DNA from: Candidatus Omnitrophota bacterium
GTDB lineage: Bacteria; Omnitrophota; Gorgyraeia; Gygaellales; Profunditerraquicolaceae
Reading direction: 5' to 3'
Length of the DNA: 64,000 nt
NCBI GenBank assembly: GCA_029561735.1
Contig: JAKQWZ010000019.1
Location: 19,388 to 83,387 of the forward strand
How positions within the stretch are numbered: position 1 is the first letter of the stretch; every line of letters begins with the position of its first letter. Positions 16,580-63,987 of the stretch are shown piece by piece. A program made the position numbers and the translations under genes. The notes under the pieces were generated by a model. It was not told the origin of the DNA. It saw only the letters and a list, made by a program, of their open reading frames with translations, and did not search any database.

Positions 16580-16707
16580 ATTCAGGCGCTAAAAATAAAA
16601 AAGCCTTCCAGGAAACATATATGCCAGAAGACTTCTGTGTCTTTGACTTGCGTAAATTATTTACGCAGAATTGTAACACTTATTGCTGATATGTCAAAAC
16701 AAAAATT

Positions 16708-26554: not shown

Positions 26555-27237
26555 AGCATTCTCGCTTTACGGTCCTGCCGGCAGGCATTAACGCACACAC
26601 CGCAGATATACTGATCCACTAATTTATTTTTCTGAAATTCCTTCAATTTTTCAAAACACTTAATATGGTCAAAATCCTGCGGGCTATTTTTTATAGCTCC
26701 TGCCGGGCATAGATTAACACATAAACAACAGGCGCCGCAATCTCTTTTTAACGGTTTATCGGTTTTTAAAGGCATATCGGTCAGAATAGTGGCAAGCCTT
26801 AACTGGCTGCCCAGTTTTTCGCTGACTAGCAGATTATTCCTTCCTATCCATCCCAACCCGGCTAATTGCGCTAATTTTTTATGCGATAAATGCGCGGTCT
26901 GGTTCTGCCAATCAAGTATTACCGAAGCCGGTATAGGAAAAGCCAGAAAGCCTTTTCTTTGGATGTAATTGGCGATTCTTAAAGCCGTTTGGTCCAGAAA
27001 AGCATTGGCTGTACGGTAATGATGAAAATAAATTTTGGTAGGAGCGTCAATTATTTCCTCTAATACCGCCTTTGAAAGCCGCGCACCTAAACAGACGGCC
27101 TTATCCAGTTTTTTTGAAACATCCTCCTTAATTGCAAATTCTTTACGTATGGCCGAAATATCCGCCACACCAAATAGATCAAGCCCTGCCGCAAGGCTGA
27201 ATTTCTTCAGGTCAGAGTAGTTTTTATTTTTATCCAT
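26551..27237 (-). CDS. queG: Epoxyqueuosine reductase QueG-like short protein (4Fe-4S)
   Basis: AGLGWIGRNNLLVSEKLGSQL block and CGACCLCVNLCPAGAI ferredoxin motif. At 228 aa it is shorter than canonical QueG, which usually carries an additional N-terminal cobalamin-binding domain. Confidence 0.45.
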   Translation of the reverse strand: MDKNKNYSDLKKFSLAAGLDLFGVADISAIRKEFAIKEDVSKKLDKAVCLGARLSKAVLEEIIDAPTKIYFHHYRTANAFLDQTALRIANYIQRKGFLAFPIPASVILDWQNQTAHLSHKKLAQLAGLGWIGRNNLLVSEKLGSQLRLATILTDMPLKTDKPLKRDCGACCLCVNLCPAGAIKNSPQDFDHIKCFEKLKEFQKNKLVDQYICGVCVNACRQDRKARML

Positions 27238-29089: not shown

Positions 29090-29097
29090 TTTACCTT

Positions 29098-29134
29098 GGG
29101 GACGGTTCTGAAATACCTCACAGAAGTGTCCCCT
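29098..29134. repeat. REP hairpin element (family A), left flank of the RAYT gene
   Basis: gggacggttctgaaatacctcacagaagtgtcccct. An imperfect palindrome in which GGGACGGTTCTG pairs with CAGAAGTGTCCC. Confidence 0.6.
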
Positions 29135-29196
29135 ATTTTAAAAATTATGTTAGAAATTAACATTTGTTGCGTCTATTATCATAGGAGGTGATAGAT

Positions 29197-29673
29197 ATGC
29201 CCAGAACAGCGCGGTTTACAATCGAAAATGGATATTACCATATTATCACAAGGGGAAATCAAAAACAAATTGTTTTCAAGGAAGAGACCGATTACACTAT
29301 TTACTTAAATATTCTAAACAAATACAGGAAGCGCTATAAGGCCAAACTCTACTGCTACTGCTTAATGCCAAATCATGTTCACTTGCTTTTAGAAGTTTCT
29401 GAACCTCAAGCTTTACGCAAATTCATGAGTGGATTAAACTTAAGCTATACGATATATTTCAATGCAAAATACAATAAAGTTGGTCATCTTTGGCAAGATA
29501 GATATATAAGCAGACTGATTCATAAAGATAAATATCTGCTGGATTGTATAAACTATATTGAAACCAATCCAATCCGGGCAAATCTGGTCCAAGATATCAC
29601 AATATATCCCTGGAGTAGCTATACGGCTAAAATGGATCAAAATAACAAAATGTTAGATGTACCCGAGATTTAA
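29197..29673 (+). mobile_element. REP-associated tyrosine transposase (RAYT, IS200/Y1 HUH family). The only plus-strand gene in the window.
   Basis: The HUH motif HVHLL and a downstream WQDRY tyrosine are present. AGGAGGTG lies 6 nt upstream of the ATG. The gene is flanked by inverted family-A REP hairpins, so it is not a TIR-bounded IS. Confidence 0.75.
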
Positions 29674-29685
29674 TAATTAGGCTAG

Positions 29686-29745
29686 AGGGGACACTTCTCA
29701 GCACAAAATCAGAACCGTCCCTAGAGTAATTTGAGAACCGTCCCT
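29686..29745. repeat. REP element (family A), right flank of the RAYT gene in inverted orientation, plus a partial 13-nt copy
   Basis: aggggacacttctcagcacaaaatcagaaccgtccct (29686-29722) and gagaaccgtccct (29733-29745). The partial copy overlaps the apgM stop codon. Confidence 0.6.
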
Positions 29746-46773: not shown

Positions 46774-47481
46774 CTAACATACCCTCAAAACCCGGCTCAA
46801 GCCCATAAGATCGGCTTTTTCCAGATTTACACCCATGCGGAATTCATTGACTCCGGAAGCCTTTGACCAGACTACGTTTCCGCGGGTGTACAAAGGCGCT
46901 CCCTTATCCGGAACATCCAGCCATATTTCCAGCGGAGTGCGCTCTTTAAGCTCTTCAGAAGCGGTAAATCCTACGCCTTTAGCGCTGATATCCACTGTCC
47001 GGGCTTGGATCTCGCGGTTGTTGTTCAAATCAATCAGGCGCATAGGCATGCTGGCGGCAAAACGCTCAAACACTCTCTTGTCCAGCTCTCCTAAATTCTT
47101 CATATTCTCACCCCCCTTTTCTTCTGACTTGAAATGCTGCTGGTCCATCTGCTTGCTAAAATGTTTGCGCATAAATTTATAAATATGTTCCTTATCCGCA
47201 TCCTTGATCTTAGAAAAATAAAGCCCGTAAGTATAAACTCCTTCGCTTGTCTTATGCCAGACTACCCATACCTGCACATCAATTATCAGCTCATTAGTCA
47301 GCTTTAGCTTGAATTTCACAAAAGAATCATCAGGCAATTTCATGCGTAGTTTAATTTTCATGCCTTTGAAATTCAGGTCGCTAAGCAGGCAGTCGCAAAA
47401 ATGCTCCGCCCCTTCAAGCTTTATCTTAGCCTGCCAGTCTGTCTGCCACCTGTTTATTTGCCTGCGGTTACGTATATCCAT
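46774..47481 (-). CDS. Tandem PilZ-domain protein (putative c-di-GMP receptor)
   Basis: Two RxxxR ... D/NxSxxG patterns: RRQINRW...LSDLNFKGMKIKL and RVFERF...TVDISAKGVGF. Confidence 0.6.
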   Translation of the reverse strand: MDIRNRRQINRWQTDWQAKIKLEGAEHFCDCLLSDLNFKGMKIKLRMKLPDDSFVKFKLKLTNELIIDVQVWVVWHKTSEGVYTYGLYFSKIKDADKEHIYKFMRKHFSKQMDQQHFKSEEKGGENMKNLGELDKRVFERFAASMPMRLIDLNNNREIQARTVDISAKGVGFTASEELKERTPLEIWLDVPDKGAPLYTRGNVVWSKASGVNEFRMGVNLEKADLMGLSRVLRVC

Positions 47482-50400
47482 TTATCTTATCCTACCTACA
47501 GGGACTGTCCCCGAGGAGCCATTGTTTACTTCAGGCGACGAAGGGGACTGTCCCTTACTCGGGGACACTTCTGTGAGGGATTTCAGAACCGTCCCTACTT
47601 TGCCGCGGACAAATAAATTGCAAGCAGGCGCTAATTCAACCGGCATCCGGCCCCGGCTCTCAATCCTCTGCCAATCTTGGCCAGAGCTATTAAATTTCAT
47701 CGCATCTTCAACATCAGCAATAACAGTTTCTACATATTCAAAAATACCCCGTGCCTGGCAATGAAGCAATAATGATAACTGCGGTTTGGTCAGGGGATAA
47801 CGCAAAGCCACATAATTTCCTTGTCCTGCCTGTTGGGCAGCCCAATCTACGATTTTGCACCACGTCTTTACGCGTTCATAGAAATTCTGGCAGAATGTGC
47901 TGATAGATAAATATAAGCTATTATCCGACGTGGTCAAGATTGCTCCGGCTACAGCCACAAACCTGTTGTTGTGCTCGATCAAATATACGTTCCTGTTTAA
48001 GGCGCGCATGATAAACCCTTCGCCGAGGTTCGTATCATGACCAGTAAGCGTAGTGCCCCACTGAGCCGTAGTCATGTCTGCGTATATATTAAAAGCTTCT
48101 TTTAATAATTCCAAAAACGGCAAATCTTTATCGCTGACAAATTTAATCGCAAATGCCGGATTATTAGTTTTAAAAGATAGCCACAACATCATTATCACTA
48201 TTTCGGCGATTGCGTTTTTTACCAGCCTGTCCGGATTGCTGCCAAGTATCACCAGCAGGCGGCTGGCAACCCTTTCAATAAGCAAAGGGTTATCCAGGCA
48301 AAGTTGAACTAAAGCATTTGTCAAATCATGATTAATACAGCATGGCTGCATATTGATATCAGCAGAATTAATGATCATCTGATCGATATCTTCATCAGTT
48401 GGTATAGTCAAACCATCTTTTACTTGCGATTTAGGCATGACCGAGCCCTCTTTTTCATTTTGGCGAGGGAATCCCGAGCCGCTTCCATTAGGCTTTGAGC
48501 GGCGAGGGGCTCCGCACCCCCCGTCCGCCGGCGGTTCAGGACGTTTGCCTTCTGCAGGATATGTGCCACCCAAATCTTCAATAGCTGTAGGGACTGTCCC
48601 CGCCGTGTCATTTTGCTGGGCGCTCAAAGGGGACTGTCCCTTATCCGGGGACACTTCTGTGAGAGATTTCAGAACCCTGCCTTGCCGGCAGGCAGGCGTC
48701 CCTCCTTTTATATATCCGATTTCAAAAGCATAGGTTAACAAATCAGTGTTGTTGCGCTCAAACCATCCGGATAACTCCTTGAACTCTAGCTCTATATAAT
48801 GATGCAGATACATCCTGCCGATGCTGGTATTAACATAAACGTTGTATTCAAACTGGCGCTTTGGATAACGCAACCTGTTGATCTCATCTCCGAATATTGA
48901 ATCAATATTATTCCACCAAAGATTATGGCACCCTAAAGAACAAGGATCATCGCAAGGCCGGTCTTTGCCCAGCTCATACGAAAAACTTCTACCCGCTCTA
49001 AGCATCACTATAGTAAAATCATCTTTTTGCCAGGGAATAGCCAATCGATTTTCACCGCTGACATAAAAATACCTTTGGCAAACTCTGCCCCTCCAATTTG
49101 AACGGTTAAATCTCAAATGGATGAGCGGAAATAAATTTCGCAGTAAATATTTGAAAGAGGCCGGATAGGGTATCTGTTCCCAGCAATCTACTTCTTTATA
49201 TGTAGTATCCATTAAGCCATCTCCGCCCATACTATCATCAACAAACAAAAGGTTAACAGTGCTTTGGGCTACTATCTCTGCCCATTTATCCATAAATATT
49301 AAATCCGCCTCGCTCTCATGCAGCGAAGGAAGAACTTCGATGGTTGTATCCAGATAATACTCAATTTTTCCCTCATCCAGCCACTCTTGAGCCAAGATAA
49401 ATTCTGCCTGTTTTAACGGTATTCTCCTCTGCTGCGATAACTGCGCAGCAAGCCGGTCAAACTCAAGCTTAGCCTGTTCGGGGTTTTCCAACTGCTGCCA
49501 CCATTGATCAATTGCCCAGACATACGGGACTCCGCTGCGGGCCATGCCAATGACCAATACTGATTTTTTAGTCTGCCTGCTTAAATCAATAGCTACATCA
49601 TTGACATTGCCGGCATCAGCTGCGCTGTGGGCAATCAAACCCTCCAACTGCCAGCGCCGGTAAGCGCTTCCCCGGCTAAAACGGGCTAACTTAATTTCTT
49701 CATCTAATAAATACAGCTGGCTTTTTGTTTCCTCCTGCTTTATTTCCAAACACTGCACTCCCGGGCAAGACGGAATCATTAACAACGGTTCCGGCCCTGG
49801 ATCAATACCGCGAAAAACATTGATCAGAAAATCAAATGCATCCGGATCTTGCTGCGGATAAATTTTACGGATCATGCCGGCCAATTGCTCGCCTAAACAG
49901 TATCCGATTTTGCCTTCTACTTCTTCTACTTCAATTAATTCAGTGCCTTGCGGATTAAATGCAAGGATATATTCCCGAACCCTTTTTATTGCTTCCTCTT
50001 GCGGCAATCCTACTAAAGTAGAACCAAAATTTGATCCTTGCTCATAATTATCTCCCTGCCGCACCCAGCCCGAAGCCAAAACAGCAAAACAAGTGGCAAA
50101 ACAATTATTAGTATCACTATCACACAAACCTAACGCGCATTCCAGGAAATGGCCTGCTTCATGGCAAAATGTATGTTTTTGCCAATGATCTTGCAGGCTT
50201 ATATACTTCCCATATCTGCTATGCTGGCCGTTTATCATGCAATCCGGCAGATTATTAATTTCTTTTTGTGTATCTATTACATAATCTAATGAAAACCAGG
50301 AAAACATGCCTGAAACAATTGTCATAACATAAAATATGAACCAATGATGGCTGTGGAGAACAGGATATAATAACGACAAATATAAGGATATATTAATCAG

Positions 50401-53400
50401 TTCGGCTAATGCTATGCAATTTCTCTGGCGCAACATATAATTACGCATTGAATTAATGCTATAGCCTTTTATTTTTTTGACGATTTCTGCGGCTTCCTTG
50501 GAGCCGGGATCAATAAAGCGCTTTAATAATTCTGCCAGATACGGCTTTACTTCTTGCCAATTATCTAAATTGTGATCAACCCTTACCCTTTCAACTGCTT
50601 TTTGGAAATCTACTGCCGGCGCAGGCAATGGTTTTTCAAAAAGAGAGTAATAAATTCTGACTTTATCCTGAGTAAACATATCATGGTAGAAACTGGCCGC
50701 GTGCTGTTGAACAAAGAATTCGCTCTTGCGCGCATCGCTATAACGCAAACCTAATTTTCTGCCTGCGTTTTTCAGATCTCTAACCAGCCGGGCATATTCT
50801 GTTTCTAAATATAATTTCCCTCCGGGCTTCAAAACTGCAAGAATACCGTTCAAGTTAGCGTAAAAGCTCTCCGTTGGTTTTTTTCGGGAAGTATATTTGA
50901 ATACTGCATCGTCGCCGTTTAAATTAGGGAATTGCACAATGACAAAATCCGCTGTTGAGGGTTCGATCTGCCCCTGCAGTACTCTCAAACTATCTCCGTG
51001 GAAAATATGTATATTCTTTATTCCCAGCTTATCTGCCTCAGTTTGCAATTTTTCAACCAAATATTGATCTACTTCTATCAGATAATAATCAATATCCGGA
51101 TTGTTAATCGCCCGCTGGATTGCTGCCTTGCCATTGCCAAACCCGAGCTCAATACCTATCGCCCTATCAGAACTTGTGGCTTCCTGCCCTTCAAAAAATG
51201 CCGGGTCATTGGCAAATGCGTGGCCTACACCGTAGCGTTTTTCGCTGTACTTTATGGTATAAGAATTTTCTAATTGCCTAACCTGCTCAATATCGCTGCC
51301 GGGAATCAGCACAAAAATAAAATCACCGCTGCGTAGTTCATAATATGCCTTTATTTGTGTGTTGCCGCCTAACTTGTGATAAACCTCAAAAGGATAGCGC
51401 CAGATTTTTGGCCGGGCGGTTAAAGAGCGTTTTATCCAAAGCTCGCCATCCTCATCGTCTTCTACGGAAAAAAGCAATTTATCCGCTGCTCCGGACAGAT
51501 CATTTTCATAGACTGCCAGCTCAATTGCCCCTTGCTGCCATAATTTATGCCGCGCAATCCGCACGCACATCCGGCTATCTTCGCCAGCGCCTAAACGCCA
51601 TGATGTATTGGTGAAAAATGCTCCGTCATTGGCAAATGCGTGGCCTACACCGAAACGCGGCTGTGCAAGATCAATCAATCGCTGAAGCCCAACAGGCATA
51701 CCTCTGGAAGTTTTTTCTTTTAGCCGGTAATGCATTAATAACCCGCCTAGAGTTTTGCCTGCGCATCTTTTAATCGGTACGGAAAAATCAGCCAGTTTTT
51801 CCACTGGCCTACCCAGCTCTTCTACCAATAACCTGATAAACCCTATTTGTATATCTTCCGGAACATTATCCCAGCGGTTAATTCTGCCTTTGCTTAGCTT
51901 CTTGACAAAATAATCCAGTGTCAGATTCTGGTTGAGTCCTATCCTCTCCTTAATATGAGCTAAAACATCAGCAGCGCTCTCTTTTGGATACTGCTTTCGA
52001 TAATATTTCCATAATGACATTAATGATTTATTGCCTAATGCCTTTACCTTCAAGGTAAAATCAGTGCTGCTTAATTCGCCGGCGTCTTTTTTCTTATGTT
52101 TTAAGGCAAGCTCAATAAAATATCGTTGCACATCCAAAGGCACCTGCTCCCATTTATCAAAATGCTTCTGCCTGATAAAAAATCTTATCCACTCTTCGGC
52201 GCTAACCGGATGCTCTTTGATACCTAGCACTTCTTTTATTTTTAATACCACCTCCGGGCGGGATAATTCCGGATACCTTCGGCAATAATAAGTAAGCATC
52301 CCACCCAGGCTTTTTCCCGCTAATAATTTTAATGGCGCTACAAAGTTATAAACCATCACCTGGAAAGATAATTTTCCGCGTTCTTTCGCGGCCTCTTCAA
52401 CAAATTCTCTTTGAATATCTAATGGCGCTTCCGACCAGCAATGGAGCATGCCACTCTTTACTTTTTCCACCCATTCACTAAAACTTAATCCCTGCTGCTT
52501 GATTCCTAGCTTTTTCATAATCAACCGGTTAATCTCATCAGGGGTTGCCGGCTGATGCTGACGGGCATAATAACTGAATAATCCGCTAAGCTGCCTGTTG
52601 CCTAAAATAGCGATCGGCTTGCGGTAATCCTCGCTTTTAAACTGCCCGGGCAGCTTTCCTAATTCAGCAGCTGCCAATTCAATAAATCTTTTCTGCGCTC
52701 TTTCCGGGATTTTGCGCCAAAGAGTAAATTGTCTTTTTTGAATAAAATCAGTAAATATTTTTTCCGGCATTGCCCCTATTGCTACCGGCAGGCTAACCAA
52801 ATCCTCTTGTTCTGTACCTTCTGGCTGCCTGTGATAAATCCGGACCATTGCCCGGTGAATAAAATCTTCCCAGTTATCAGGCGCTATTGCTCCTGCAGCG
52901 ATAAAATTATCCACGCAATACAATGCCCTATTAAGGCATTCGGCTAACAACTCTTCAGTTTTGCCCTCTTGGATCATCCGGTCAAGGCGGGCTAACTCTA
53001 TAATTGATTCTTTGCGCCACGGCGTTGCCTGTTGAGTAGCTTTTTCCTGCCCAAGCAATGCTCCCAGGCAAAACACCGGAGAAACGAAAAGCCCAAAGGA
53101 TGAATGATGATGGACGAGGAGCGATAGAAGGGCCAATATCAATATGCCGGCAAGCAATCCGGATTCGCCGGCTGAGCTTTGCAGCGCCTTTATAATTTTT
53201 GTTTTGGCTCTTTGCAAAGCGTTATCTATTTTTTTGACCCCGACTTTTAAAGTTTCTGCTGCTTCGGCATATGAATCGCCCATGCGCGCTTTAAGCTCAA
53301 AAGCTAGCCTCTCAATCGGCGATAAATTAGCTGCGGCTATCAATTGCCTGAGAACTTCCTGGTTAATACTATGCATAAATGCGTCTTCGGCAGGCGGATC

Positions 53401-56400
53401 AGGAAGCTGGTCGCCGATTTCTTCACTATCATCTTCAAACCTGTATCCGTTTAAAGAAAGATTATTCGGATCCCTTAAGTAGCTCTTAATAGCGCTGCGC
53501 ATAGCATTTTGAGCTGCCCCGCGTAAGTACTTCGCTAAGCTTCCCTTATTATGGTCATATCTTCCGGAGCGTAGCGCCTGATCCATCCTTTCTTCGCATA
53601 GAACAATTAATTCATCTGTTTCCAAACCCGGATAATCTCTGTGTGTTTTCACAGCCTCTATGCGGGCTATCCATCTGTGCTTTTCTAAAATATCTTCTTC
53701 ACTTTCGCCAAATCCGTTTAGCTCATTACTCCTTCTGGTAATCCGGCGCAAAATATCCCGGCGCTCTTTTTTTCTGCCTGCTTCGATAAATAAAGCCACC
53801 TCATCATTGGCTAATTGTTTTTCGGCTTGAACTAATTCTACGTCTGACAAAGCGCTTTCTGCGGGCTGATTAGCCTCTGCAGCCATCGCCTCTGCCTCCA
53901 AAGTTAAGCCGATCTGCCTGCGCACCACATAAGCCACATACTGCTTCCACATCATTTGCTGGTGTTTAGCTACTATAGCTTCCCGGCGCCTTCTTTCTAA
54001 TCGCGCTTTCTGCTCTGCTCTTTCTTGCTGCCGGGATATCCGCGCTGCTTTACTGGCTTCTTTTTGCGCCAAGCGCTCTACTTCTTTTGCCTTTTTAAAT
54101 TCCGCAACAGCATTATCTGCATCTCTGCGGATTTCCTCCTCCCATTCCCCGGGGCTTTGCGCAATAAAATCCAATCCGGTATGGGTTTCAAAAACTTGCG
54201 GTTGCATTTCTGCTTCAATTTCAAGCTTACGCACTTCCAAGCTCTTTAAAGCCCTGCCTACTCCGGATATATGCCAACCACTCTTTCTCTGCCCAGAACT
54301 GGAATAAATCCTTACCGGAGCCATGTCAGCTAAAATAGCTCTGACTTTATCTGCATCAACGCCATATTTTTCCAGCAACTTAACCAAATTTTTAGCCGCC
54401 ACATTACGCATACTGAATACCGAATCTTTAGTTTTATCCATTGCCTGCATTATGGCCGGCATATTCTGTTTATCAACAAAATATGCTTTTAGTATCGCGG
54501 TATTGTCTTTGGTGAATTTCAAGCCGTCTATCACCCAGCCTCCGGCGATAACAGCTTCCAGCTCAACAATAATCTGGCCCAAGTATTTTGGTAAATCTGC
54601 TAACCTATCTTTAGTTAAAACCGGCCCGATTATCTTTTTATCCAGCTCCGATTCCAGTATTTGGTAAACCCTGCTTTTTGCTTCACCCAAAGCCCGGGCA
54701 ACTGCTTTTACTCCGTCGCAGCGGTAAGCAGCGATATTCTGCACTCTTTCTAACTCAAAATTTGCGGCAATCTGCTCTTCAGTTAAAGCTTCCAAATAAT
54801 ACAGTTTTAAAGTTTCCCTCCACACCGGCCTCAGGCCTTTAACCGAGGCTTGCGGATTTGTTACAATCCTGATTATTTCCCGGCTTAATTCCTGATCAGT
54901 TATTACAGGAACAACTGATCCATTTTGCACCAGCCCGAACAATACAGGTAACCCTACAAGTAGGGACGGTTCTGAAATTACCTTCAAAGGTGTCCCCGAC
55001 AGGAACGCTTCTGTGAGGGAATTCAGAACCGTCCCTAAAGAGGCAACAAGCTCGCGGCCAAAGAGCAAGGCCGCCAGAGCCAGCAAGCCTACAACCACCG
55101 CAGCAATAACTCCTATACGACCCTTGCTATCTAGAAGTAGGTTATCGGCAACCGCTTTAGCTGCCCAAAATTCTTCAGCATAAAATCTTTCCAGCTCTGC
55201 TCTTTTATTGCGATAAGCCGGATTAAAAGCAGGGATATTATGCGGCGGCACTGCGGGATACCGGAAATACCCCATCAGATCATCGATCATCGGGAATACT
55301 TCACTATGAATAGTATCATCGTCTTCTAAATACATCTGCTCCTGAGCTAGCCCTATATCCTTAAAGGCAAGGCCAAAATCAGCAACGTGCATAATTTTTA
55401 GTTTACCGTCAGGCTCTCTAATAAGCCTGAAATTACCCTTATGCATATCAGAACGCGGAGCTGTTATTGTTCCGTTTCCTAAAACAGAGGTTTTCATCCT
55501 TGAGTTAATCCAACCTAAAGCGTGCAAACGCGCAAGAATGCTTAACACCTGCTCCGACACGCTCTGCGCCTGCTCAAAATCAAGCATATCCGGACGGATA
55601 TTTTCCAGCCTTTTCGCGTCCTGATATTCAAAAGCCGTGATAACCAGCGGCCCTTGCGCAGTGTAGACGATCTGCCTGCCAAAGGCGTCAATCACACAAT
55701 CGGTATTGACTAATTTAAAAATGGGCAATGTTACCCCTGCGTTAGCGCCAAAATTATTTACCAGATCAGCAGAAACATCAAAATCACTTTCCGATAAGAG
55801 ATGCCTGCCGTATTCAAACATATCCCCGGTCATTTTAAATTCCATAGCATCAGTCACAACACCTGACTGCATGATAAAGATTATCATCCTGCGGAAAGAT
55901 TCGGTTATAGGCGTCATATATACATCTCCAAATAAATGCGTGTATATACCATTATCCAAAGCGTATTGCAACGGCGGACGCGGATCTTTGGCGCTTATTT
56001 CAGGCGGATATTCCTGACGTAATTCACTGCCCAAATGGATAAGCTCGCGCAAATTCTGCATATCAATGAACAAATTCAGGATACCCGGATGTTTCTGCGC
56101 AAAACTACTAACAGCTATATCTTCTCCGGAATCAAGGAAAGTAAATTTACTGCAGGAAGTAGCGATTACAGCAATCAAACATACCGCAAGCAGGGACGGT
56201 TCTGAAATTACCTTCAAAGGTGTCCCCTCTGGTGACAGTTGTGTAAAGAAAATCAAAACCACCCCTAACAATATCACTTGCATAGGTTTTTCACTAACAG
56301 CGGTACGGATTTTACCCGATAGCCGATAAAACCAATCTTTTACTCTGGTAAATAATTCCGGCCAGCAAGAAAGTTCTTTGGCTTCTTTATGGAGAGAAAT

Positions 56401-59400: not shown

Positions 59401-62400
59401 GTCCGAAGCAAAAGTATCAGCTTGCGCCGGAGTAAGTTCGTCATAAAGCTGAGCCTCGCTCTTAGGTGATCCCATTGCCTCATTATAAGGTAAATCAACG
59501 ACTAACGCCTCACGCCTGCGTTTTTTGACGGCGTTATAAATCAGGTTATGTATAGAGGCATAAATGATGGTTTTAAAGCTCGAGAGGCATTTGAAATTGC
59601 GGCAGCATTTTAAAAATACTACTTCTAGATCAGCCAGCTCAATTTCCAGCTCTTCCAATCTAAAGCCAAATCCGGCGGCGAAAGTAAAGGCAGTGCCCAT
59701 TAAATAGGTATTCAGGCCTTTTTTGCAGTCTTCATTGATAAACCTCTGTACTTCTTGACGCGCTGCCTCGCTCTTAAAGCCGATTTTATCGTCTTCTATC
59801 TGCACCCTAGCCAGATCCGGCCCGCCGCCGTAATTTATCGGGCCGTCATACGGAGCCACATCCGGCCTTGACCCGCCTTCGCTAGTAATAGAAGAAATTA
59901 CCTCGGAAGGATGCGTATAAAACACCTGTTCATAAATGCTGTAGCCTTTATCCAGATCAATGCTGCCAACGCGCTCCCTGAAACACAGAGGAAAGATTAT
60001 TTGCGGCTCCCCGGGCAATTTTGTCATTTGTAGAATAAAGTGCGCGTCTTTAGCCTCAACTGTCTTGATGCCAACTGCCCTGCATTGTTTATTAAGAAAA
60101 TCTATAATTCTGTCGTAATCAACGCTTGTGACAATGGCACTGTTATCAGTATTCCTGGAGTTTAATATCTTGCGCGGGTCAAAATGCAAAGAGGATATCC
60201 CGTCTACCTGCAAAATCCGATGCGCCTCTTCAAAAGCAATAACCGGATCATAAACGTAAGGCAAGGCATAAGTAGACATTACTATATGGAATGAATCATA
60301 GGCAAAAGGCAGGTTCTGACTGTCCGCGCAGACAACATGAATCCCTTTCCCGCGTAATTCTTCGCTGCGCTGCTGTGAACTAAAATTACGCAGCGTTGTG
60401 CCCACCACAAAGATCTTATCGCCGAAAACCTCTTTAATTTCTTCCAAGGCAACTGCCCGGCCGCAGCCGATATCGAGTATACGCAGTGGATTTTCAGCAG
60501 AAGCGTTGAAATATTTTATCATTGCCGAAATTATGTTATAGAAATTTACTCCGTGGATTTCGTTATATCCGTCCTCTCCGCGCACTCCCCGTAGAGTCTT
60601 CATCTTACCGGATAATTTTCCTGATTGAAATACTGCCCCCAGGCCCTCAATATATTGCTGGCTCGAATAGAATTTACGATATTCCGGGTCATTGCGGCGC
60701 CCATACTGACGCATAGCATGAACACTGCGCCAAACTTCATCTACAACAGGTTTAACCGGCTCTTCTGTTTCAGGAGCAACAATGCTTTCTTCTTTAATTA
60801 CTCCCTGCCAATAGGCAAAATTCTCTGTCTCCAAAGCCACAAACTCATCTATATCGCTTCTTAATCCTCTATTTCTTCCTGCGACAAAAGCCGGGAATAG
60901 AACCGCGTAATACTGCCGGCTATCCAGGAGGCCTGAATCTACCAAGGATTTTCCGAATTTAAAATAGGCGCAAGCTGCCTCAAGCACATCGTCATTGATA
61001 TTGGCTTCCTGCAAAAGATGTTCTACTGTCTCCCCTACGTAACAGAATGCCTTGGCATACTGATTGGCATCCATAACTAAATGCAGGAAACGCAGACTCT
61101 CTTCTTCGCGCATAAGGCATTCACCGCTAGCTATCATCAGAGGCAGATACAAAGGCTTGTCGCCTGCGGAATAAGAAAAATTGTATTCCGGAAAATCTTC
61201 ACAAATAAAAGCATTACTGTCTAAACCTGATAATTCTCCCAAGCCGCGCCTAATTATACGCTCGTGCATGCGCGTGCCAGGAAAAGATATAACTTGCGGG
61301 CTAATCGGGCCTAAGCCGCCTTCCAGTGCCGGCATAACAATACGGCTTACCCGGCGTAAAGCATCAATATCTTCCGAAGAAACAGAACCCGGATTAACCA
61401 GAATATAATTTGCATCCTGACTGCCGCGCATAAGCTCTATTACGCCCTCCGTAAGATCCTGCCTGTGTTCACTTGCTCCGTTTAATATAACCAGCCTCGT
61501 TTTTTCTTTGAAACTGCGGTCATCCACAGCCACCGCCAGATTACGAATAGTCTCAAGCACGTCCTTAAGCCGGGTGTCAATGTTGGTTAAAATAAGATAC
61601 TGAATACTGGGGATGCCCAGATGGCGCAGGCATACCACTACTTTTAAGATATCTTCAAACTTGTAACCCTTATTTTGCCGCGCCAATTCTTCGTCGGTAA
61701 ATGCATCTGTGCCGATGGCTAATCCCATCTCCGAGAATATATAGTTATTTTCGCCGTAAAGCGCATGCAATTTCTGCACAAAGTCCGTGTTGATCTCATT
61801 TTGTACTTTTCCCGCAGCATCACTGTGTTTCTCCAGAAATACATTATCGGAAGTCTGGATATGGCGCACGCGCAATTTCGCTAAACCCGGATCACTTGCC
61901 CATTTCCTTAATATCTCCAAACCGCGCTCACCGCACTCTGCCAGGAAAAAGTCATCATCTACAAAATCCACCACACAGAAATTTTCTATATCTATACCAT
62001 GAGTTTGTGCATACTCCGCAAACCTCTTCAACTCCCTTATCACTGCTTCAGGCGGCATTGCCCTCACATGCTTTCCATGCACGGCGGAACAGAAAACACA
62101 CCCACGGTTACAGCCGCGCGAAGTCATCAGCTGCAGAATAATTGGCGGCGTGTTGGTTAGATCAAGGAAAGAATAATCAAGTTCGAGGTTGGTTAACTCT
62201 TCGACACTAAGGCGATTGGGCTGGCCGCTTGCGCAGTCTATCAATACATTGCCCTGTCTGAAGATAAATCCTCCGAGTTCCAACAGCTCCGTTAATATCC
62301 GGCTGGGAACGCTGTGGCTACCCATGATCTTAAGCATTCCCGGAAAAACAATTTCTGCTTCTCCGGCAAAAACAATATTCGCCTCGGGAAGCTGGGCCGC

Positions 62401-63987
62401 GCAAATTTCAGGCGTCATAGTTGCCATCGGCCCGCCCACAGCAATAAGCAACTCTGGGAACCGCTTACGGATATGCGCTAATAATATCTGCATCTCATCA
62501 AGCCCGGCAGCATAAACAGTAAATCCGAGAAGAGACGGATTTGCTTTTTCAATAGCCGCGTCAATTTCAGTGAATAAAAACTTACCTTGATTTTTTTGTA
62601 TCCCCGCACAGGTTATTTCTGTAGGTATACCTGCTTTGCGCAAACTAGAGCCAAGATAATGGCTTGAGACTGAAATAGCACCCTGGTCCCTTCTATCACG
62701 AGAGAATACGGGATTGGAGAATAAAAGCACTTTGCTTTCTACTCCGGGCATAGCTAGATTACCGGCAACCCCTACTCTTGTTTCCTTTAACGCTTCTTTT
62801 GCTTGGTTAATATAAATCCTTTGCTCCTGCCTACTTAAATAAAGAAATTCCTGCTGCAGGCGGACGATCAAACGCGGATTATCCCATGAAATATCTTTCG
62901 CTATCTCTATAACTTCTTGTAGCGACTGAGAAGATCCGATATAAATGACACCGCCGCTTATTACCCTACTCTTAATCTCATCTTTAAAGATAACTTCCAT
63001 CGAGCGGATCAGCCTAAAATATGCCTGCGAAGGTATCTCTATCAATTCCGGATTAAAGGCAAGCCACTTGCCGGAACATCCTACCGGCTCCATAATAATT
63101 TTCCCCTCGTCATCAACCACAGGGATTCTTCTTATTGGTTCGCGGATCTCCTCACAAGCTGTGCCATCTTCTATTGCCGGCCCGCCGCCGTAATTTATCG
63201 GGCCGTCATAAGGTCCAACATCCGGCCTTGAGCCGCCTTCCGGATTATCCACAACGTAGGGGACTGTTCCTGCCTGCCGGCAGGCAGGTAAACCTCCCCT
63301 GCGGCTGTTAATAACTTCGAAATCCGGCGCGCCGGTAGGCGGCATTTGCTCCAGCACTTGCGGGCTTCCCAACTTATTGCTTATCCAGACATAATAATAA
63401 CGGATAAAACCGCAAAGCTCATAAAGATTGGCAGCAATTTCTCCCCAGCCGTAAAGATGCGCTGGCTCGTGAAATCTTTGTTTAGTATATTGAAGATTTT
63501 CCGGCAAATGCTTAAAGGCAGGGTCACAGAATATATGCGATATTCCTTCGTGGATAATTGATTGACTGACAGGCATAAACAGATACTTGATAATCAGCTT
63601 AACTTGCTCCAGCGGAGGGCCGCGCAAGCCATATTCTTTAATCATTGCTCTTAAAGTAAAAAGCCCGTTATACTGAAAATATATACTTGCGGCAAATATA
63701 GCCAAACCAATAATCCAGCCGTAGGCCAGTCCGATAAAAGATAAACTCAACAGATAAAGCGCACCTGCCAATGCCAGCGCTGCGGCAGCATTGGAAGGCA
63801 TAGATTGTGGCTGCCTACCTTGAGCCGGGTAATTTTTCAAATGGCTAAACATCAGAGAATATTTTGACCATAAGCGCAGGATAATTTTTACCGGGCCTTG
63901 GCCGCCGGATTTATATAATTTCCCGTCAATATATACTTGCCAATAAGCACCTGAATATTCTAATTCGGCTATATATTTATAATCCAC
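47482..63987 (-). CDS. Giant 5501-codon multi-module ORF. The upstream end is not closed within the window.
   Basis: 16,506 nt without a stop in the standard code. The ATG at 63985-63987 has no in-frame stop above it before the window edge. Recognisable modules, by protein position:
- N-terminal TM helices.
- B12-binding radical SAM at ~440-900 (CNRGCVFCSA).
- Class I SAM methyltransferase at ~1130-1330 (ILDIGCGRAVA).
- ECF-sigma-like sigma2+sigma4 at ~1395-1600 (REVVALAMQGYNLREIAGLLGVSVPTVKGR) followed by a TM helix.
- HELGH motif at ~2461.
- Kinase-like DMHKGN...ADFG at ~2780-2890.
- Second ECF-sigma-like module at ~3430-3600 (LSPIERLAFELKARMGDSYAEAAETLKV) followed by TM helices.
- Four tandem ~95-aa repeats at ~3780-4100.
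- TrmB-like MTase at ~4270-4420 (IGIELGFGNGK).
- HEAGH motif at ~4609.
- A C-terminal ~270-aa module.
REP palindromes are embedded in-frame. Whether it is translated as one polypeptide is unresolved. Confidence 0.6.
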   Translation of the reverse strand: MDYKYIAELEYSGAYWQVYIDGKLYKSGGQGPVKIILRLWSKYSLMFSHLKNYPAQGRQPQSMPSNAAAALALAGALYLLSLSFIGLAYGWIIGLAIFAASIYFQYNGLFTLRAMIKEYGLRGPPLEQVKLIIKYLFMPVSQSIIHEGISHIFCDPAFKHLPENLQYTKQRFHEPAHLYGWGEIAANLYELCGFIRYYYVWISNKLGSPQVLEQMPPTGAPDFEVINSRRGGLPACRQAGTVPYVVDNPEGGSRPDVGPYDGPINYGGGPAIEDGTACEEIREPIRRIPVVDDEGKIIMEPVGCSGKWLAFNPELIEIPSQAYFRLIRSMEVIFKDEIKSRVISGGVIYIGSSQSLQEVIEIAKDISWDNPRLIVRLQQEFLYLSRQEQRIYINQAKEALKETRVGVAGNLAMPGVESKVLLFSNPVFSRDRRDQGAISVSSHYLGSSLRKAGIPTEITCAGIQKNQGKFLFTEIDAAIEKANPSLLGFTVYAAGLDEMQILLAHIRKRFPELLIAVGGPMATMTPEICAAQLPEANIVFAGEAEIVFPGMLKIMGSHSVPSRILTELLELGGFIFRQGNVLIDCASGQPNRLSVEELTNLELDYSFLDLTNTPPIILQLMTSRGCNRGCVFCSAVHGKHVRAMPPEAVIRELKRFAEYAQTHGIDIENFCVVDFVDDDFFLAECGERGLEILRKWASDPGLAKLRVRHIQTSDNVFLEKHSDAAGKVQNEINTDFVQKLHALYGENNYIFSEMGLAIGTDAFTDEELARQNKGYKFEDILKVVVCLRHLGIPSIQYLILTNIDTRLKDVLETIRNLAVAVDDRSFKEKTRLVILNGASEHRQDLTEGVIELMRGSQDANYILVNPGSVSSEDIDALRRVSRIVMPALEGGLGPISPQVISFPGTRMHERIIRRGLGELSGLDSNAFICEDFPEYNFSYSAGDKPLYLPLMIASGECLMREEESLRFLHLVMDANQYAKAFCYVGETVEHLLQEANINDDVLEAACAYFKFGKSLVDSGLLDSRQYYAVLFPAFVAGRNRGLRSDIDEFVALETENFAYWQGVIKEESIVAPETEEPVKPVVDEVWRSVHAMRQYGRRNDPEYRKFYSSQQYIEGLGAVFQSGKLSGKMKTLRGVRGEDGYNEIHGVNFYNIISAMIKYFNASAENPLRILDIGCGRAVALEEIKEVFGDKIFVVGTTLRNFSSQQRSEELRGKGIHVVCADSQNLPFAYDSFHIVMSTYALPYVYDPVIAFEEAHRILQVDGISSLHFDPRKILNSRNTDNSAIVTSVDYDRIIDFLNKQCRAVGIKTVEAKDAHFILQMTKLPGEPQIIFPLCFRERVGSIDLDKGYSIYEQVFYTHPSEVISSITSEGGSRPDVAPYDGPINYGGGPDLARVQIEDDKIGFKSEAARQEVQRFINEDCKKGLNTYLMGTAFTFAAGFGFRLEELEIELADLEVVFLKCCRNFKCLSSFKTIIYASIHNLIYNAVKKRRREALVVDLPYNEAMGSPKSEAQLYDELTPAQADTFASDMACAEQVLAIQDIIRSLPSERREVVALAMQGYNLREIAGLLGVSVPTVKGRFYRANLTINRRMAKLWPGWGNQSSGKQFSFSPQEFAKTIRSLMRDNPDDLWKGMGCLGFVAIGWPGSLSEWLVILAITWIAISVIYVSCVLVKEARYARQKRNEFKARSGYTDMQIKYFEGLLAKYFYKGRAHLTDKELLSIYYFVLDRDSQQALHLYSQIIEEGKQLSERAAQVTNVPAAKSGMPFLLVLPFAGMLDGFYSGGLEQFWKSVQPHAPPAGAAELIAIVGLAVLAMLVIAGFFQKKPNVIGSAVPKVVAPVTEDGTVFASEYIWPEDLKEQAQFILALREKLLQGISENQLKREIELLKEEFKDIKSKDIPPELVGRTFSIAAEVIRRQAGYIISPDQIVEALLVWPTRIGEYHWHCLDEIIFSILDVSIAATELVICNINYLDQQSWKNVKRVYSYLGIDISDKFKCQANSLSVQVRKFIYKLFGWPMDLVGFLGIAPGSWGGWERGRNWREHNDIEEKILSQNERIKELAQSTNYWQHTAAADYGGKYNLLNIMLVGRIHPGLDSRIGVKSFTLVLLFGLGVFCLYHCNYSIVFYLLGAIALRNLIYLAKYYCDGSSFARGFEGETIEEFSRCGYLFMRGFQYRAIVKEAAAYPWYHYIFGIPRKLHLIYLIIDEEKEFFESGLKVAKEGRAISQDLYEELLARVVTHSDLIEANGNIEKLLEQRGIVEQGKSRINWAPLFRFVVLPLLVLLFIASPAFSIPLVTCNLPLATSFAGLIAIAGLALWKLSGGGSNNSVPVSARESAETEPKCGAIGKYESIEIESLEILPDDQVIIKAMIRRFGAKQKEEATIHGIRAPPERFADFTRIGISDIDSALEIILVDITEDPRSLLIEIDRSLDIPGFAAMYDGAPVVGLHSSIFDNPLAQFHELGHAANAAELITADEILAFVTDQRFYEQKLEENGFTPENVPESVKCHYALRALQHQVFHGHDEIFHRVISLHKEAKELSCWPELFTRVKDWFYRLSGKIRTAVSEKPMQVILLGVVLIFFTQLSPEGTPLKVISEPSLLAVCLIAVIATSCSKFTFLDSGEDIAVSSFAQKHPGILNLFIDMQNLRELIHLGSELRQEYPPEISAKDPRPPLQYALDNGIYTHLFGDVYMTPITESFRRMIIFIMQSGVVTDAMEFKMTGDMFEYGRHLLSESDFDVSADLVNNFGANAGVTLPIFKLVNTDCVIDAFGRQIVYTAQGPLVITAFEYQDAKRLENIRPDMLDFEQAQSVSEQVLSILARLHALGWINSRMKTSVLGNGTITAPRSDMHKGNFRLIREPDGKLKIMHVADFGLAFKDIGLAQEQMYLEDDDTIHSEVFPMIDDLMGYFRYPAVPPHNIPAFNPAYRNKRAELERFYAEEFWAAKAVADNLLLDSKGRIGVIAAVVVGLLALAALLFGRELVASLGTVLNSLTEAFLSGTPLKVISEPSLLVGLPVLFGLVQNGSVVPVITDQELSREIIRIVTNPQASVKGLRPVWRETLKLYYLEALTEEQIAANFELERVQNIAAYRCDGVKAVARALGEAKSRVYQILESELDKKIIGPVLTKDRLADLPKYLGQIIVELEAVIAGGWVIDGLKFTKDNTAILKAYFVDKQNMPAIMQAMDKTKDSVFSMRNVAAKNLVKLLEKYGVDADKVRAILADMAPVRIYSSSGQRKSGWHISGVGRALKSLEVRKLEIEAEMQPQVFETHTGLDFIAQSPGEWEEEIRRDADNAVAEFKKAKEVERLAQKEASKAARISRQQERAEQKARLERRRREAIVAKHQQMMWKQYVAYVVRRQIGLTLEAEAMAAEANQPAESALSDVELVQAEKQLANDEVALFIEAGRKKERRDILRRITRRSNELNGFGESEEDILEKHRWIARIEAVKTHRDYPGLETDELIVLCEERMDQALRSGRYDHNKGSLAKYLRGAAQNAMRSAIKSYLRDPNNLSLNGYRFEDDSEEIGDQLPDPPAEDAFMHSINQEVLRQLIAAANLSPIERLAFELKARMGDSYAEAAETLKVGVKKIDNALQRAKTKIIKALQSSAGESGLLAGILILALLSLLVHHHSSFGLFVSPVFCLGALLGQEKATQQATPWRKESIIELARLDRMIQEGKTEELLAECLNRALYCVDNFIAAGAIAPDNWEDFIHRAMVRIYHRQPEGTEQEDLVSLPVAIGAMPEKIFTDFIQKRQFTLWRKIPERAQKRFIELAAAELGKLPGQFKSEDYRKPIAILGNRQLSGLFSYYARQHQPATPDEINRLIMKKLGIKQQGLSFSEWVEKVKSGMLHCWSEAPLDIQREFVEEAAKERGKLSFQVMVYNFVAPLKLLAGKSLGGMLTYYCRRYPELSRPEVVLKIKEVLGIKEHPVSAEEWIRFFIRQKHFDKWEQVPLDVQRYFIELALKHKKKDAGELSSTDFTLKVKALGNKSLMSLWKYYRKQYPKESAADVLAHIKERIGLNQNLTLDYFVKKLSKGRINRWDNVPEDIQIGFIRLLVEELGRPVEKLADFSVPIKRCAGKTLGGLLMHYRLKEKTSRGMPVGLQRLIDLAQPRFGVGHAFANDGAFFTNTSWRLGAGEDSRMCVRIARHKLWQQGAIELAVYENDLSGAADKLLFSVEDDEDGELWIKRSLTARPKIWRYPFEVYHKLGGNTQIKAYYELRSGDFIFVLIPGSDIEQVRQLENSYTIKYSEKRYGVGHAFANDPAFFEGQEATSSDRAIGIELGFGNGKAAIQRAINNPDIDYYLIEVDQYLVEKLQTEADKLGIKNIHIFHGDSLRVLQGQIEPSTADFVIVQFPNLNGDDAVFKYTSRKKPTESFYANLNGILAVLKPGGKLYLETEYARLVRDLKNAGRKLGLRYSDARKSEFFVQQHAASFYHDMFTQDKVRIYYSLFEKPLPAPAVDFQKAVERVRVDHNLDNWQEVKPYLAELLKRFIDPGSKEAAEIVKKIKGYSINSMRNYMLRQRNCIALAELINISLYLSLLYPVLHSHHWFIFYVMTIVSGMFSWFSLDYVIDTQKEINNLPDCMINGQHSRYGKYISLQDHWQKHTFCHEAGHFLECALGLCDSDTNNCFATCFAVLASGWVRQGDNYEQGSNFGSTLVGLPQEEAIKRVREYILAFNPQGTELIEVEEVEGKIGYCLGEQLAGMIRKIYPQQDPDAFDFLINVFRGIDPGPEPLLMIPSCPGVQCLEIKQEETKSQLYLLDEEIKLARFSRGSAYRRWQLEGLIAHSAADAGNVNDVAIDLSRQTKKSVLVIGMARSGVPYVWAIDQWWQQLENPEQAKLEFDRLAAQLSQQRRIPLKQAEFILAQEWLDEGKIEYYLDTTIEVLPSLHESEADLIFMDKWAEIVAQSTVNLLFVDDSMGGDGLMDTTYKEVDCWEQIPYPASFKYLLRNLFPLIHLRFNRSNWRGRVCQRYFYVSGENRLAIPWQKDDFTIVMLRAGRSFSYELGKDRPCDDPCSLGCHNLWWNNIDSIFGDEINRLRYPKRQFEYNVYVNTSIGRMYLHHYIELEFKELSGWFERNNTDLLTYAFEIGYIKGGTPACRQGRVLKSLTEVSPDKGQSPLSAQQNDTAGTVPTAIEDLGGTYPAEGKRPEPPADGGCGAPRRSKPNGSGSGFPRQNEKEGSVMPKSQVKDGLTIPTDEDIDQMIINSADINMQPCCINHDLTNALVQLCLDNPLLIERVASRLLVILGSNPDRLVKNAIAEIVIMMLWLSFKTNNPAFAIKFVSDKDLPFLELLKEAFNIYADMTTAQWGTTLTGHDTNLGEGFIMRALNRNVYLIEHNNRFVAVAGAILTTSDNSLYLSISTFCQNFYERVKTWCKIVDWAAQQAGQGNYVALRYPLTKPQLSLLLHCQARGIFEYVETVIADVEDAMKFNSSGQDWQRIESRGRMPVELAPACNLFVRGKVGTVLKSLTEVSPSKGQSPSSPEVNNGSSGTVPVGRIR
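47501..47596. repeat. REP cluster (two family-B gggactgtcccc units plus one family-A unit) inside the 3' end of the giant ORF, immediately before the PilZ start
   Basis: gggactgtcccc (47501-47512), ggggactgtccc (47543-47554), ggggacacttctgtgagggatttcagaaccgtccct (47561-47596). Translated as VGTVLKSLTEVSPSKGQSPSSPEVNNGSSGTVP. Confidence 0.6.
48590..48705. repeat. REP cluster (B, B, A) with a nested family-C palindrome inserted into the A unit
   Basis: The cluster has the same B...B...A organisation as 47501-47596. The A unit ggggacacttctgtgagagatttcagaacc is interrupted by ctgccttgccggcaggcagg (48677-48696), then resumes with cgtccct. Confidence 0.6.
54963..55036. repeat. Family-A REP dimer (REPIN-like: forward unit, 11-nt spacer, reverse unit) in-frame in the giant ORF
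   Basis: gggacggttctgaaattaccttcaaaggtgtcccc gacaggaacgc ttctgtgagggaattcagaaccgtccct. Encodes GTVLNSLTEAFLSGTPLKVISEPSLL between two hydrophobic segments. Confidence 0.6.
56193..56266. repeat. Family-A REP unit plus a decayed partner copy in-frame in the giant ORF
   Basis: gggacggttctgaaattaccttcaaaggtgtcccc followed by the degenerate gtgtaaagaaaatcaaaaccacccct. Encodes EGTPLKVISEPSLL. Confidence 0.55.
59817..59880. repeat. 64-nt coding repeat, copy 1 (copy 2 at 63177..63240)
   Basis: ccggcccgccgccgtaatttatcgggccgtcata is identical in both copies and ~90% identity holds over 64 nt. Encodes GGSRPDV(A/G)PYDGPINYGGGP at giant-ORF residues ~1371-1390 and ~251-270. Confidence 0.7.
63177..63240. 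repeat. 64-nt coding repeat, copy 2
   Basis: See 59817..59880. This copy lies directly adjacent to the B/C element at 63258-63300. Confidence 0.7.
63258..63300. repeat. Family-B-like unit fused to a family-C palindrome in-frame in the giant ORF
   Basis: ggggactgttcc tgcctgccggcaggcagg taaacctcccct. Encodes GGLPACRQAGTVPYV. Confidence 0.5.

Follow-up and report, generated by a model that had tools for sequence, protein, structure and literature searches.

The window analysed here is a stretch of 64,000 nucleotides from a Candidatus Omnitrophota bacterium (NCBI GenBank assembly GCA_029561735.1, contig JAKQWZ010000019.1, positions 19,388 to 83,387), in which a giant open reading frame (ORF) on the minus strand occupies 47482..>63999 and stays open to the window edge with no in-frame stop. 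Inside this frame lie copies of a family of repetitive extragenic palindromic sequences (REPs), and copies of the same family flank a gene for a REP-associated tyrosine transposase (RAYT) at 29188..29673 on the plus strand. The giant ORF is followed directly by a PilZ gene (46774..47481, minus strand). An earlier sequence-only reading of this DNA had claimed that the REP copies are read through in frame at module boundaries and had offered two models, a former operon whose REP-containing spacers are all open in one frame, or REPs captured as coding linkers. Comparison of the window with independently assembled contigs and related genomes indicates that a modular giant protein probably contains the copies in translated form, as linkers, loops and tails.

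A reading-frame scan of the window showed that the minus-strand frame is stop-free from 63999 to 47485, a stretch of 16.5 kb with 5,505 sense codons (the ORF is thus at least 5,505 codons long), and that it ends with the TAA at 47482-47484. Codon usage, judged against a training set of the 32 other genes of the window, was coding-like in 107 of 109 sliding windows of the ORF. The frame is equally open in three contigs assembled independently from other samples with 100% identity to the window (L001, L004, L005), and it is also open in a contig from a separate sample with 98% identity (L036). An alternative genetic code was dismissed because recoding of a stop makes ORFs called under table 11 shorter rather than longer. 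Pfam domains in the ORF include B12-binding and Radical_SAM domains, a class-I S-adenosylmethionine methyltransferase (Methyltransf_11), a TrmB-like Methyltransf_4 and, twice, Sigma70_r4_2 (sigma-70 region-4 helix-turn-helix (HTH) domains), while a hydropathy scan found about 13 hydrophobic helices, mostly paired, between the soluble parts. A protein search with a 4,995-aa query from the ORF returned a single homologue, a 3,643-aa hypothetical protein from a Candidatus Omnitrophota metagenome-assembled genome (MAG), with 35% identity over one module. The length, the unrelated enzyme domains and the roughly 13 hydrophobic helices are those of the giant multi-enzyme proteins of this phylum. We conclude that the ORF is one of the modular 'multi-enzyme' giant genes of Omnitrophota, made up of soluble enzyme and regulator modules with hydrophobic helix pairs and flexible linkers between them.

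The transposase gene was identified by Pfam Y1_Tnp (1.7e-18) and passes the equivalog cut-off of NCBIfam NF047646, 'REP-associated tyrosine transposase' (81.6 vs 80 bits); HUH (HVH) and Y..NP motifs are seen in its sequence. Inverted copies of a 35-nt imperfect palindrome, GGGACGGTTCTGA-N14-GTGTCCCC, flank it, as a half REP plus a full REP upstream (29074..29134, conserved in the relatives L037 and L046) and a full REP plus a half REP downstream (29686..29745), and this REP-flanked arrangement is conserved on both sides of the gene in relatives. The family in the giant ORF thus has a cognate RAYT in the window, and the inverted flanking REPs together with Y1_Tnp and NF047646 uphold the earlier claim that the copies in the ORF and those around the RAYT gene are of one family. 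The REP units of the whole window (n = 10) lie around the RAYT gene and inside the giant ORF only.

Four clusters of this family are found in the giant ORF, each wholly inside the frame, in phase and without a stop, as had been claimed from the letters and as the frame scan and the contigs L001, L004, L005 and L036 now confirm. A 34-nt REP pattern matched four times where zero matches were expected. The giant frame reads the copies as (V/Q)G(T/R)VLKSLTEVSP, LGTVLNSLTEAFL, LGVVLIFFTQLSP and (E/S)GTPLKVISEPSL. Each cluster leaves just one or two of its three sense frames open, and in-phase, stop-free copies are therefore no free outcome. Most units begin with TAG-GGAC; the full 5' tetranucleotide GTAG occurs in some only, for example at 47597-47600, at 54957-54963 and in the mini-palindrome at 48586, and the others carry TTAG, CTAG, ATAG, GCAG or GGAG.

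All four clusters are read on the minus strand. At the C-terminal tail, a REP hairpin at 47561..47597 is read as VGTVLKSLTEVSP and folds as RNA with -16.4 kcal/mol (z = -2.7). A second tail hairpin (47500..47555), whose arms are the mini-palindromes GGGACAGTCCC at 47544-47554 and 47501-47511, is translated as KGQSP...GTVP. The internal cluster consists of a REP hairpin at 48647..48705 (REP unit 48647-48683), read as GGTPACRQGRVLKSLTEVSP and bearing a 21-nt palindrome, GCCTGCCTGCCGGCAAGGCAG, nested in its 5' arm at 48677-48697, and of a second hairpin at 48589..48641 with two GGGACAGTCCC arms, read as KGQSPLSAQQNDTAGTVP. Further upstream in the gene, an inverted doublet of the REPIN type (REP doublet forming hairpins) at 54961..55037 is read as LGTVLNSLTEAFLSGTPLKVISEPSL between two hydrophobic segments, and its fold reaches -41.5 kcal/mol (z = -6.4). 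Single unit and doublet alike thus fold into the hairpins expected of short imperfect palindromes. The fourth cluster, a REPIN-type doublet at 56191..56267 read as LGVVLIFFTQLSPEGTPLKVISEPSL, has one degenerate arm. This arm (56231-56267) reads GVVLIFFTQLSP in place of GTVLKSLTEVSP and has lost every charged residue by the substitutions K to I, E to Q, T to V and S to F; it lies within a predicted hydrophobic helix, and it looks like a case of REP-derived codons adapted to a membrane setting. The outer stem of the same doublet carries three substitutions, all of them still paired via G.U in the sense RNA. The extragenic location that gives REPs their name does not apply to these copies, which lie inside a frame of 5,505 codons.

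The positions of the clusters agree with the claim that they fall where domains end and begin. The alignment of the preceding module to its Omnitrophota homologue ends exactly at the internal REP cluster. An exhaustive profile-free search found 13 relatives of the last module, which align from just after MPKSQ (query residue 54-67) to LFVRG, directly before the REP tail. Between the internal cluster and the last module lies a Gly/Pro/Ser-rich linker of 50 residues (48439..48588, minus strand) that is conserved in none of the last-module homologues. Both doublets sit between adjacent, paired hydrophobic helices according to the hydropathy scan. The limits of the homologue alignments, the low-complexity linker and the interhelix loops all suggest that the locations are permissive ones.

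Strain comparisons bear on whether the copies are read through. Contig L036 spans both C-terminal clusters with its frame intact, and its four indels relative to the window within the ORF (+3, -3, -24 and -21 nt) are all multiples of three. The -21 indel is a clean presence/absence difference, with the palindrome GCCTGCCTGCCGGCAAGGCAG present in the window and an intact REP arm in L036; nested in the REP arm of the window, it thereby adds PACRQGR. From the end of the last module to the PilZ start there are 38 nt in L029, 113 nt in the window and L036, and 134 nt in L002. The tail of L029 has no REP hairpin and that of L002 has one extra mini-palindrome, +21 nt and in frame, so that tail lengths differ by 75 and 21 nt, and all versions end at the identical TAA next to the PilZ ATG. 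Insertion lengths relative to empty alleles in related strains, a comparison that the sequence-only reading had proposed, were multiples of three (21, 21 and 75 nt), with no empty allele among them for the two doublets. The region covering both doublets (residues 2300-3300) had no homologue in the protein search and no relative in the metagenome scan, and hence yielded no empty-site allele. Mobility of the family is seen in the tail REP missing from L029, in the 21-nt palindrome missing from L036 and in a doublet of L044, a relative with about 80-84% identity.

The last module is under purifying selection: the window and L002 differ in it by 12 synonymous and 7 non-synonymous changes, and the window and L029 share 91% nucleotide and 92% amino acid identity. 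Taken together, these comparisons are good evidence, if of an indirect kind, that the REP clusters are traversed by ribosomes, and the repeats are almost certainly read as protein.

The last joint differs from the others. An in-frame ATG (MPKSQ...) at 48436..48438 on the minus strand is preceded by the Shine-Dalgarno (SD)-like AAGAGGG with a 7-nt spacer, just as had been pointed out from the letters. In L029 the linker before the last module has only 62% identity to the window with a net difference of 46 nt, which breaks the frame, and the upstream frame stops at L029:198-200. The last module is there a separate ORF that opens with ATG-CCA-AAG (MPK) at L029:161, overlaps the upstream frame by 40 nt and starts at the same conserved ATG as at 48436-48438 of the window. 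Elsewhere, the last-module family is found as proteins of 320-370 aa and also inside proteins of 1,471-4,305 aa. The separate ORF from the conserved MPK ATG, together with the standalone and embedded members of the family, marks the last joint as what appears to be a genuine cistron boundary, fused in the window, L036 and L002 and split in L029 within one species; an internal start at 48436-48438 in the window is plausible. The 5,505 codons of the whole giant ORF include only 9 in-frame starts with a good SD sequence, of which the MPK start alone follows a joint. No SD-preceded start was found after the other five joints, so the modules behind them have no such start of their own. An enrichment of SD plus start candidates after joints was considered and rejected, as about 0.6 are expected by chance near a joint and 1 was seen. 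Both models proposed earlier are partly right: the former operon is supported at the last joint only, by the split of L029 at the MPK ATG, as no start signal follows the others, and the captured coding linker fits most joints (linker, helix-pair loops, C-terminal tail, indels in multiples of three).

Downstream of the last module, the TAA at 47482-47484 directly abuts the ATG of the PilZ gene, which bears out another earlier claim, and this stop-start abutment is kept in L002, L029 and L036 despite their unequal tail lengths.

The giant gene stands out as an island of locally high divergence, with L029 at 97.9% identity to the window (without gaps) from PilZ onward in the flanking genes, at 90.9% in the last module and at 62% in the linker. 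A REP cluster better conserved than what surrounds it was considered for L029 and rejected: at 97.9% it matches the background of the genome, and what departs from the norm is the high divergence of the module and the linker. In L036, the 98% identity gives way to 88% beyond 49069 in the upstream direction, and the stretch 49069-49220 is scrambled. The divergence island at 47600-49800 suggests mosaic alleles or recombination. The beginning of contig L002 (L002:1-150) runs from the end of the last module (…LFVRGKV) through a REP cluster into the start of that module, an order that would fit a tandem duplication of the module via REP clusters; the first 55 nt of the contig are the exact C-terminal junction, as an overlap in an assembly graph would also give. 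Both the odd start of L002 and the frame break of L029 come from short-read assemblies.

For recurrence outside this species, the exact REP pattern was scanned over 185,579 species genomes, the genome of the window not being among the matched loci. The family was found in 21 loci, all from MAGs titled Omnitrophota or uncultured Planctomycetia/Planctomycetales. Across the Omnitrophota genome and metagenome loci we counted 47 non-redundant exact copies: 26 in stop-rich intergenic DNA, 8 at the 5' edge of open frames, 5 in the 3' tails of ORFs and 8 deep in giant ORFs, so that 34 of the 47 are intergenic or at the 5' edge of open frames. Belonging to the RAYT-flanking family, forming stable hairpins and lying mostly between genes or at 5' edges in relatives, the repeats are REPs. 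Five exact copies deep in frames come from one MAG, JAHISH01, in which the frames stay open over the full length of their contigs (1,254 to 2,666 codons) and encode HAD hydrolase, PEP-utilising, aminotransferase, HTH and TPR domains; these REP-bearing frames have no similarity to the protein of the window. Every deep copy is read in the GGG-ACx frame, though a second frame is open in each orientation, a bias with a chance of about 1 in 500 if the nine events are independent, which they may not be. Two other giant genes that contain the last-module family (L055, L056) have no REP-like repeats, and a generalised picture of REP-bounded cassettes was rejected on this ground.

Peptide-level motifs also mark module junctions in giant proteins of this phylum. 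The motif [A/S/V]SSP[V/A] occurs 17 times vs about 1.6 expected in the JAHISH01 giants (L019, L021, L014, L015), 8 times vs 0.6 in P0003 (L055) and 18 times vs 0.8 in P0005, and all 7 REP sites of JAHISH01 are at most 8 codons from an SSP motif. P0001 (L007) has 12 copies of (R/K)RSPSG, 200-540 residues apart at module borders. Both motifs are conserved as peptide with codons varying synonymously, and they could be processing or modification sites. The hairpin repeat at RRSPSG in L007, a distant homologue, was considered as a second case of translated REPs and rejected; since its codons vary synonymously, it is a motif of the peptide.

Several repeats beyond those described earlier came to light, including the second GGGACAGTCCC hairpins and the nested 21-nt palindrome described above. 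At the joint preceding the B12/radical-SAM module, a palindrome cluster (63260..63292, minus strand) combines a perfect 20-nt palindrome, CCTGCCTGCCGGCAGGCAGG, with a mini-palindrome and is read as GLPACRQAGTVP. A 64-nt non-palindromic repeat (EGGSRPDVGPYDGPINYGGGP) is found at two joints on the minus strand, at the module joint 63177..63240 and at 59817..59880 between the methyltransferase and sigma-like modules; the copies are 92% identical and encode EGGSRPDV(A/G)PYDGPINYGGGP. Its fold is not significant (z = 0.38), and no other locus was found to carry it; as it is neither palindromic nor present elsewhere, membership in the REP family was rejected. A 44-nt in-frame repeat at 51194-51237 and 51614-51657 (89% identical, 140 codons apart) encodes (R)(F/Y)GVGHAFAND and flanks a segment upstream of the Methyltransf_4 domain.

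Outside the giant ORF, L044 carries a 78-nt REP doublet (L044:3804-3891) directly behind the TAG stop of a gene (which ends at 16708 in the window), while the corresponding window site, 16698-16707, is empty; the family therefore acts like classical REPs outside giant genes. This pair of filled and empty sites is useful for defining the footprint of REP insertion. Beside the RAYT gene, the half REP at 29074-29097 contains the start codon of MnmG, the N-terminus MRTVPE of which is therefore REP-derived, and the half REP at 29724-29746 supplies the TAG stop of a phosphoglycerate mutase gene; both are conserved in relatives with 78-84% identity. A palindrome of the CCTGCCGGCAGG type at 26566-26592 lies within the last 5-14 codons of the ORF 26551..27237, shortly before the start of the next gene, which overlaps the ORF. 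Here too, a palindrome is thus translated into a C-terminal tail.

We favour, with a probability of about 0.7, the reading that a RAYT-served REP family colonised permissive joints of a modular giant gene, where selection would have kept only the in-frame, stop-free copies, and that these REPs now serve as translated linkers, loops and tails of the protein. The REP/REPIN family, served by the resident single-copy RAYT, would insert at many places, and in a tightly packed genome REPs would survive mainly where they are harmless, some of them just beyond stop codons. Inside the giant gene they would be tolerated at joints that accept 12-40 extra residues, provided that they are in frame and stop-free. 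Ribosomes would read through the copies, which would make REP-derived peptides such as GTVLKSLTEVSP, GTPLKVISEPSL, GQSP...GTVP and PACRQGR part of the protein, as the strain comparisons indirectly support. Some copies would have been adapted later, as where one arm became hydrophobic in a predicted membrane helix, and small linker indels at the last joint would toggle fused and split states within one species. The REP tail would be held in frame so as to bring the giant ORF to its end at the TAA next to the PilZ ATG in every case, and the terminating ribosome probably opens the tail hairpins and restarts on PilZ.

Several points weigh against this reading. Translation through the REPs is deduced from frame conservation and codon statistics alone, and the independent indel events are few (4 vs L036 and 2 tail variants). 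No strain without either doublet was found, and the status of the doublets as insertions is therefore carried by their family resemblance. The frame break of L029 could be an assembly error, although a net change of 46 nt in a rearranged linker is not a typical one. The GGG-ACx bias may stem partly from the copying of whole linkers rather than from independent insertions, and translational coupling to PilZ is conjectural.

The strongest competitor holds that the ORF is a stop-less polycistron of formerly separate genes, with modules translated mainly from their own internal starts and REP spacers that are functionally intergenic and merely tolerated as open. We consider this unlikely. The separate last module of L029 starting at the conserved MPK ATG, the SD-like AAGAGGG in the window, the 320-370-aa proteins of the last-module family elsewhere and the unrelated functions of the modules would all fit it, but among the nine good-SD starts only that one follows a REP joint, and the doublets lie between adjacent hydrophobic helices, not between genes. 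The frame would moreover be under no selection in such a polycistron, yet the indels that preserve it are all multiples of three, and four in-phase, stop-free spacers would arise by chance with a probability of about (1/3)^4 x 0.05. Somewhat less probable still is that the hairpins are kept for a role in the long mRNA or DNA, as RNase barriers, folding pause sites or recombination seams for module swaps, and are not neutral passengers. The three outer-stem substitutions in 56191-56267 that all keep G.U pairing in the sense RNA speak for such a role, but three wobble-compatible transitions are weak evidence, and translating ribosomes would melt the hairpins. The divergent tract of L029 is bounded by the REP cluster and the REP-tail site, yet the identity breakpoint of L036 is not at a REP; the start of L002 joins module end, REP cluster and module start as in a REP-mediated tandem duplication, yet a 55-nt overlap of the kind that assembly graphs typically produce falls on that very junction; and although the REPs of the window are confined to the RAYT surroundings and the giant ORF, two other giant genes with the same module family lack REP-like repeats.

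A wider version of the last idea, in which REP clusters are seams for building and remodelling Omnitrophota giant genes by settling at cistron ends, where spacer indels fuse or split the genes and clusters bound module duplications and swaps, is in our view doubtful. The L036 breakpoint away from any REP and the REP-free genes of L055 and L056 lend little support to reshuffling of giant genes by REPs. A conserved peptide motif with a merely secondary resemblance to the RAYT-flanking REPs is a very improbable reading of the repeats in the ORF, one that the data already contradict. True peptide-level junction motifs such as SSP and RRSPSG do exist in other Omnitrophota giant proteins, but the copies here are conserved as nucleotide palindromes in both orientations, giving two different peptides, the same 35-nt pattern is mostly intergenic in relatives, and the copies show presence/absence polymorphism.

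In-frame intragenic REPs are not without precedent, and the earlier description of the arrangement as highly unusual was overstated. Intragenic REPs and Rickettsia palindromic elements (RPEs) lie in frame in linkers, loops and termini of proteins in Rickettsia, Opitutus and other bacteria, intragenic REPs of the GTAG/CGTC type being most numerous in Opitutus terrae; dimers encode 20-30 aa and clusters 43-82 aa, their position in flexible linkers and loops of modular proteins led to the suggestion that they are neutral, and some neighbouring genes take their stop codons from REP ends (Di Nocera et al. 2013, PMC3733652). The copies described here resemble them in belonging to a RAYT-associated family that lies wholly inside ORFs and in frame, as singles, dimers and clusters, and Opitutus terrae and Omnitrophota are both in the Planctomycetes-Verrucomicrobia-Chlamydiae (PVC) group. 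They differ in their host, a giant gene with no fewer than 5,505 codons that holds four clusters or more, in that the family recurs in giant ORFs of another Omnitrophota MAG, and in that there are direct presence/absence alleles in multiples of three and one joint that is fused or split. As cited there, the RPEs (Ogata et al., refs 13-14 in PMC3733652) are likewise in-frame palindromic mobile repeats that add a peptide without destroying the protein; they are 100-150 nt long with no dedicated transposase known, whereas the present units measure 35 nt as REPs and 80 nt as doublets, and their cognate RAYT is encoded in the same window.

With the REP/BIME (bacterial interspersed mosaic element) sequences of enterobacteria and the REPINs of Pseudomonas, the family shares imperfect palindromes, inverted doublets and a single, vertically inherited, REP-flanked RAYT. 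Its sites outside the giant gene right after stop codons are those of classical REPs, from which the copies within the coding frame of the giant gene depart in not being extragenic. Two preprints (bioRxiv 10.1101/2023.11.21.568195 and bioRxiv 10.64898/2026.06.07.730766) describe giant proteins of Omnitrophota composed of unrelated enzyme domains, radical SAM among them, and of membrane helices. The present ORF is like them in its great length, its unrelated enzyme domains (radical SAM, methyltransferases) and its transmembrane helices, and its closest homologue and REP family come from Omnitrophota MAGs; it is unlike them in having almost no homologues. At the level of words, the two preprints contain neither 'palindrom' nor 'linker', and the latter, of which the 81 hits for words starting with 'rep' were read in part, contains no 'RAYT'.

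Given the precedent in PMC3733652, the locus is a well-documented new example and no new phenomenon. New are the host (giant genes of Omnitrophota), the repeated occurrence in different genomes, the filled and empty alleles seen directly, and the joint that is polymorphic between fused and split. For annotation, it carries a warning that REP-driven assembly breaks and REP-coded tails distort gene calls in Omnitrophota genomes with giant genes. For metaproteome searches, it offers exact peptides, for example VLKSLTEVSPDK, GTPACR and GQSPLSAQQNDTAGTVPTAIEDLGGTYPAEGK, together with one internal start codon. The locus adds a new phylum and giant genes to the known settings of in-frame REP insertion; giant genes appear to be the main tolerated sink for REPs in a compact genome. 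The natural alleles bear on whether giant Omnitrophota ORFs are translated as one chain and on how giants grow; and if REP clusters did act as seams, the REP/RAYT system would contribute to genes reaching tens of thousands of codons and would not be a mere passenger.

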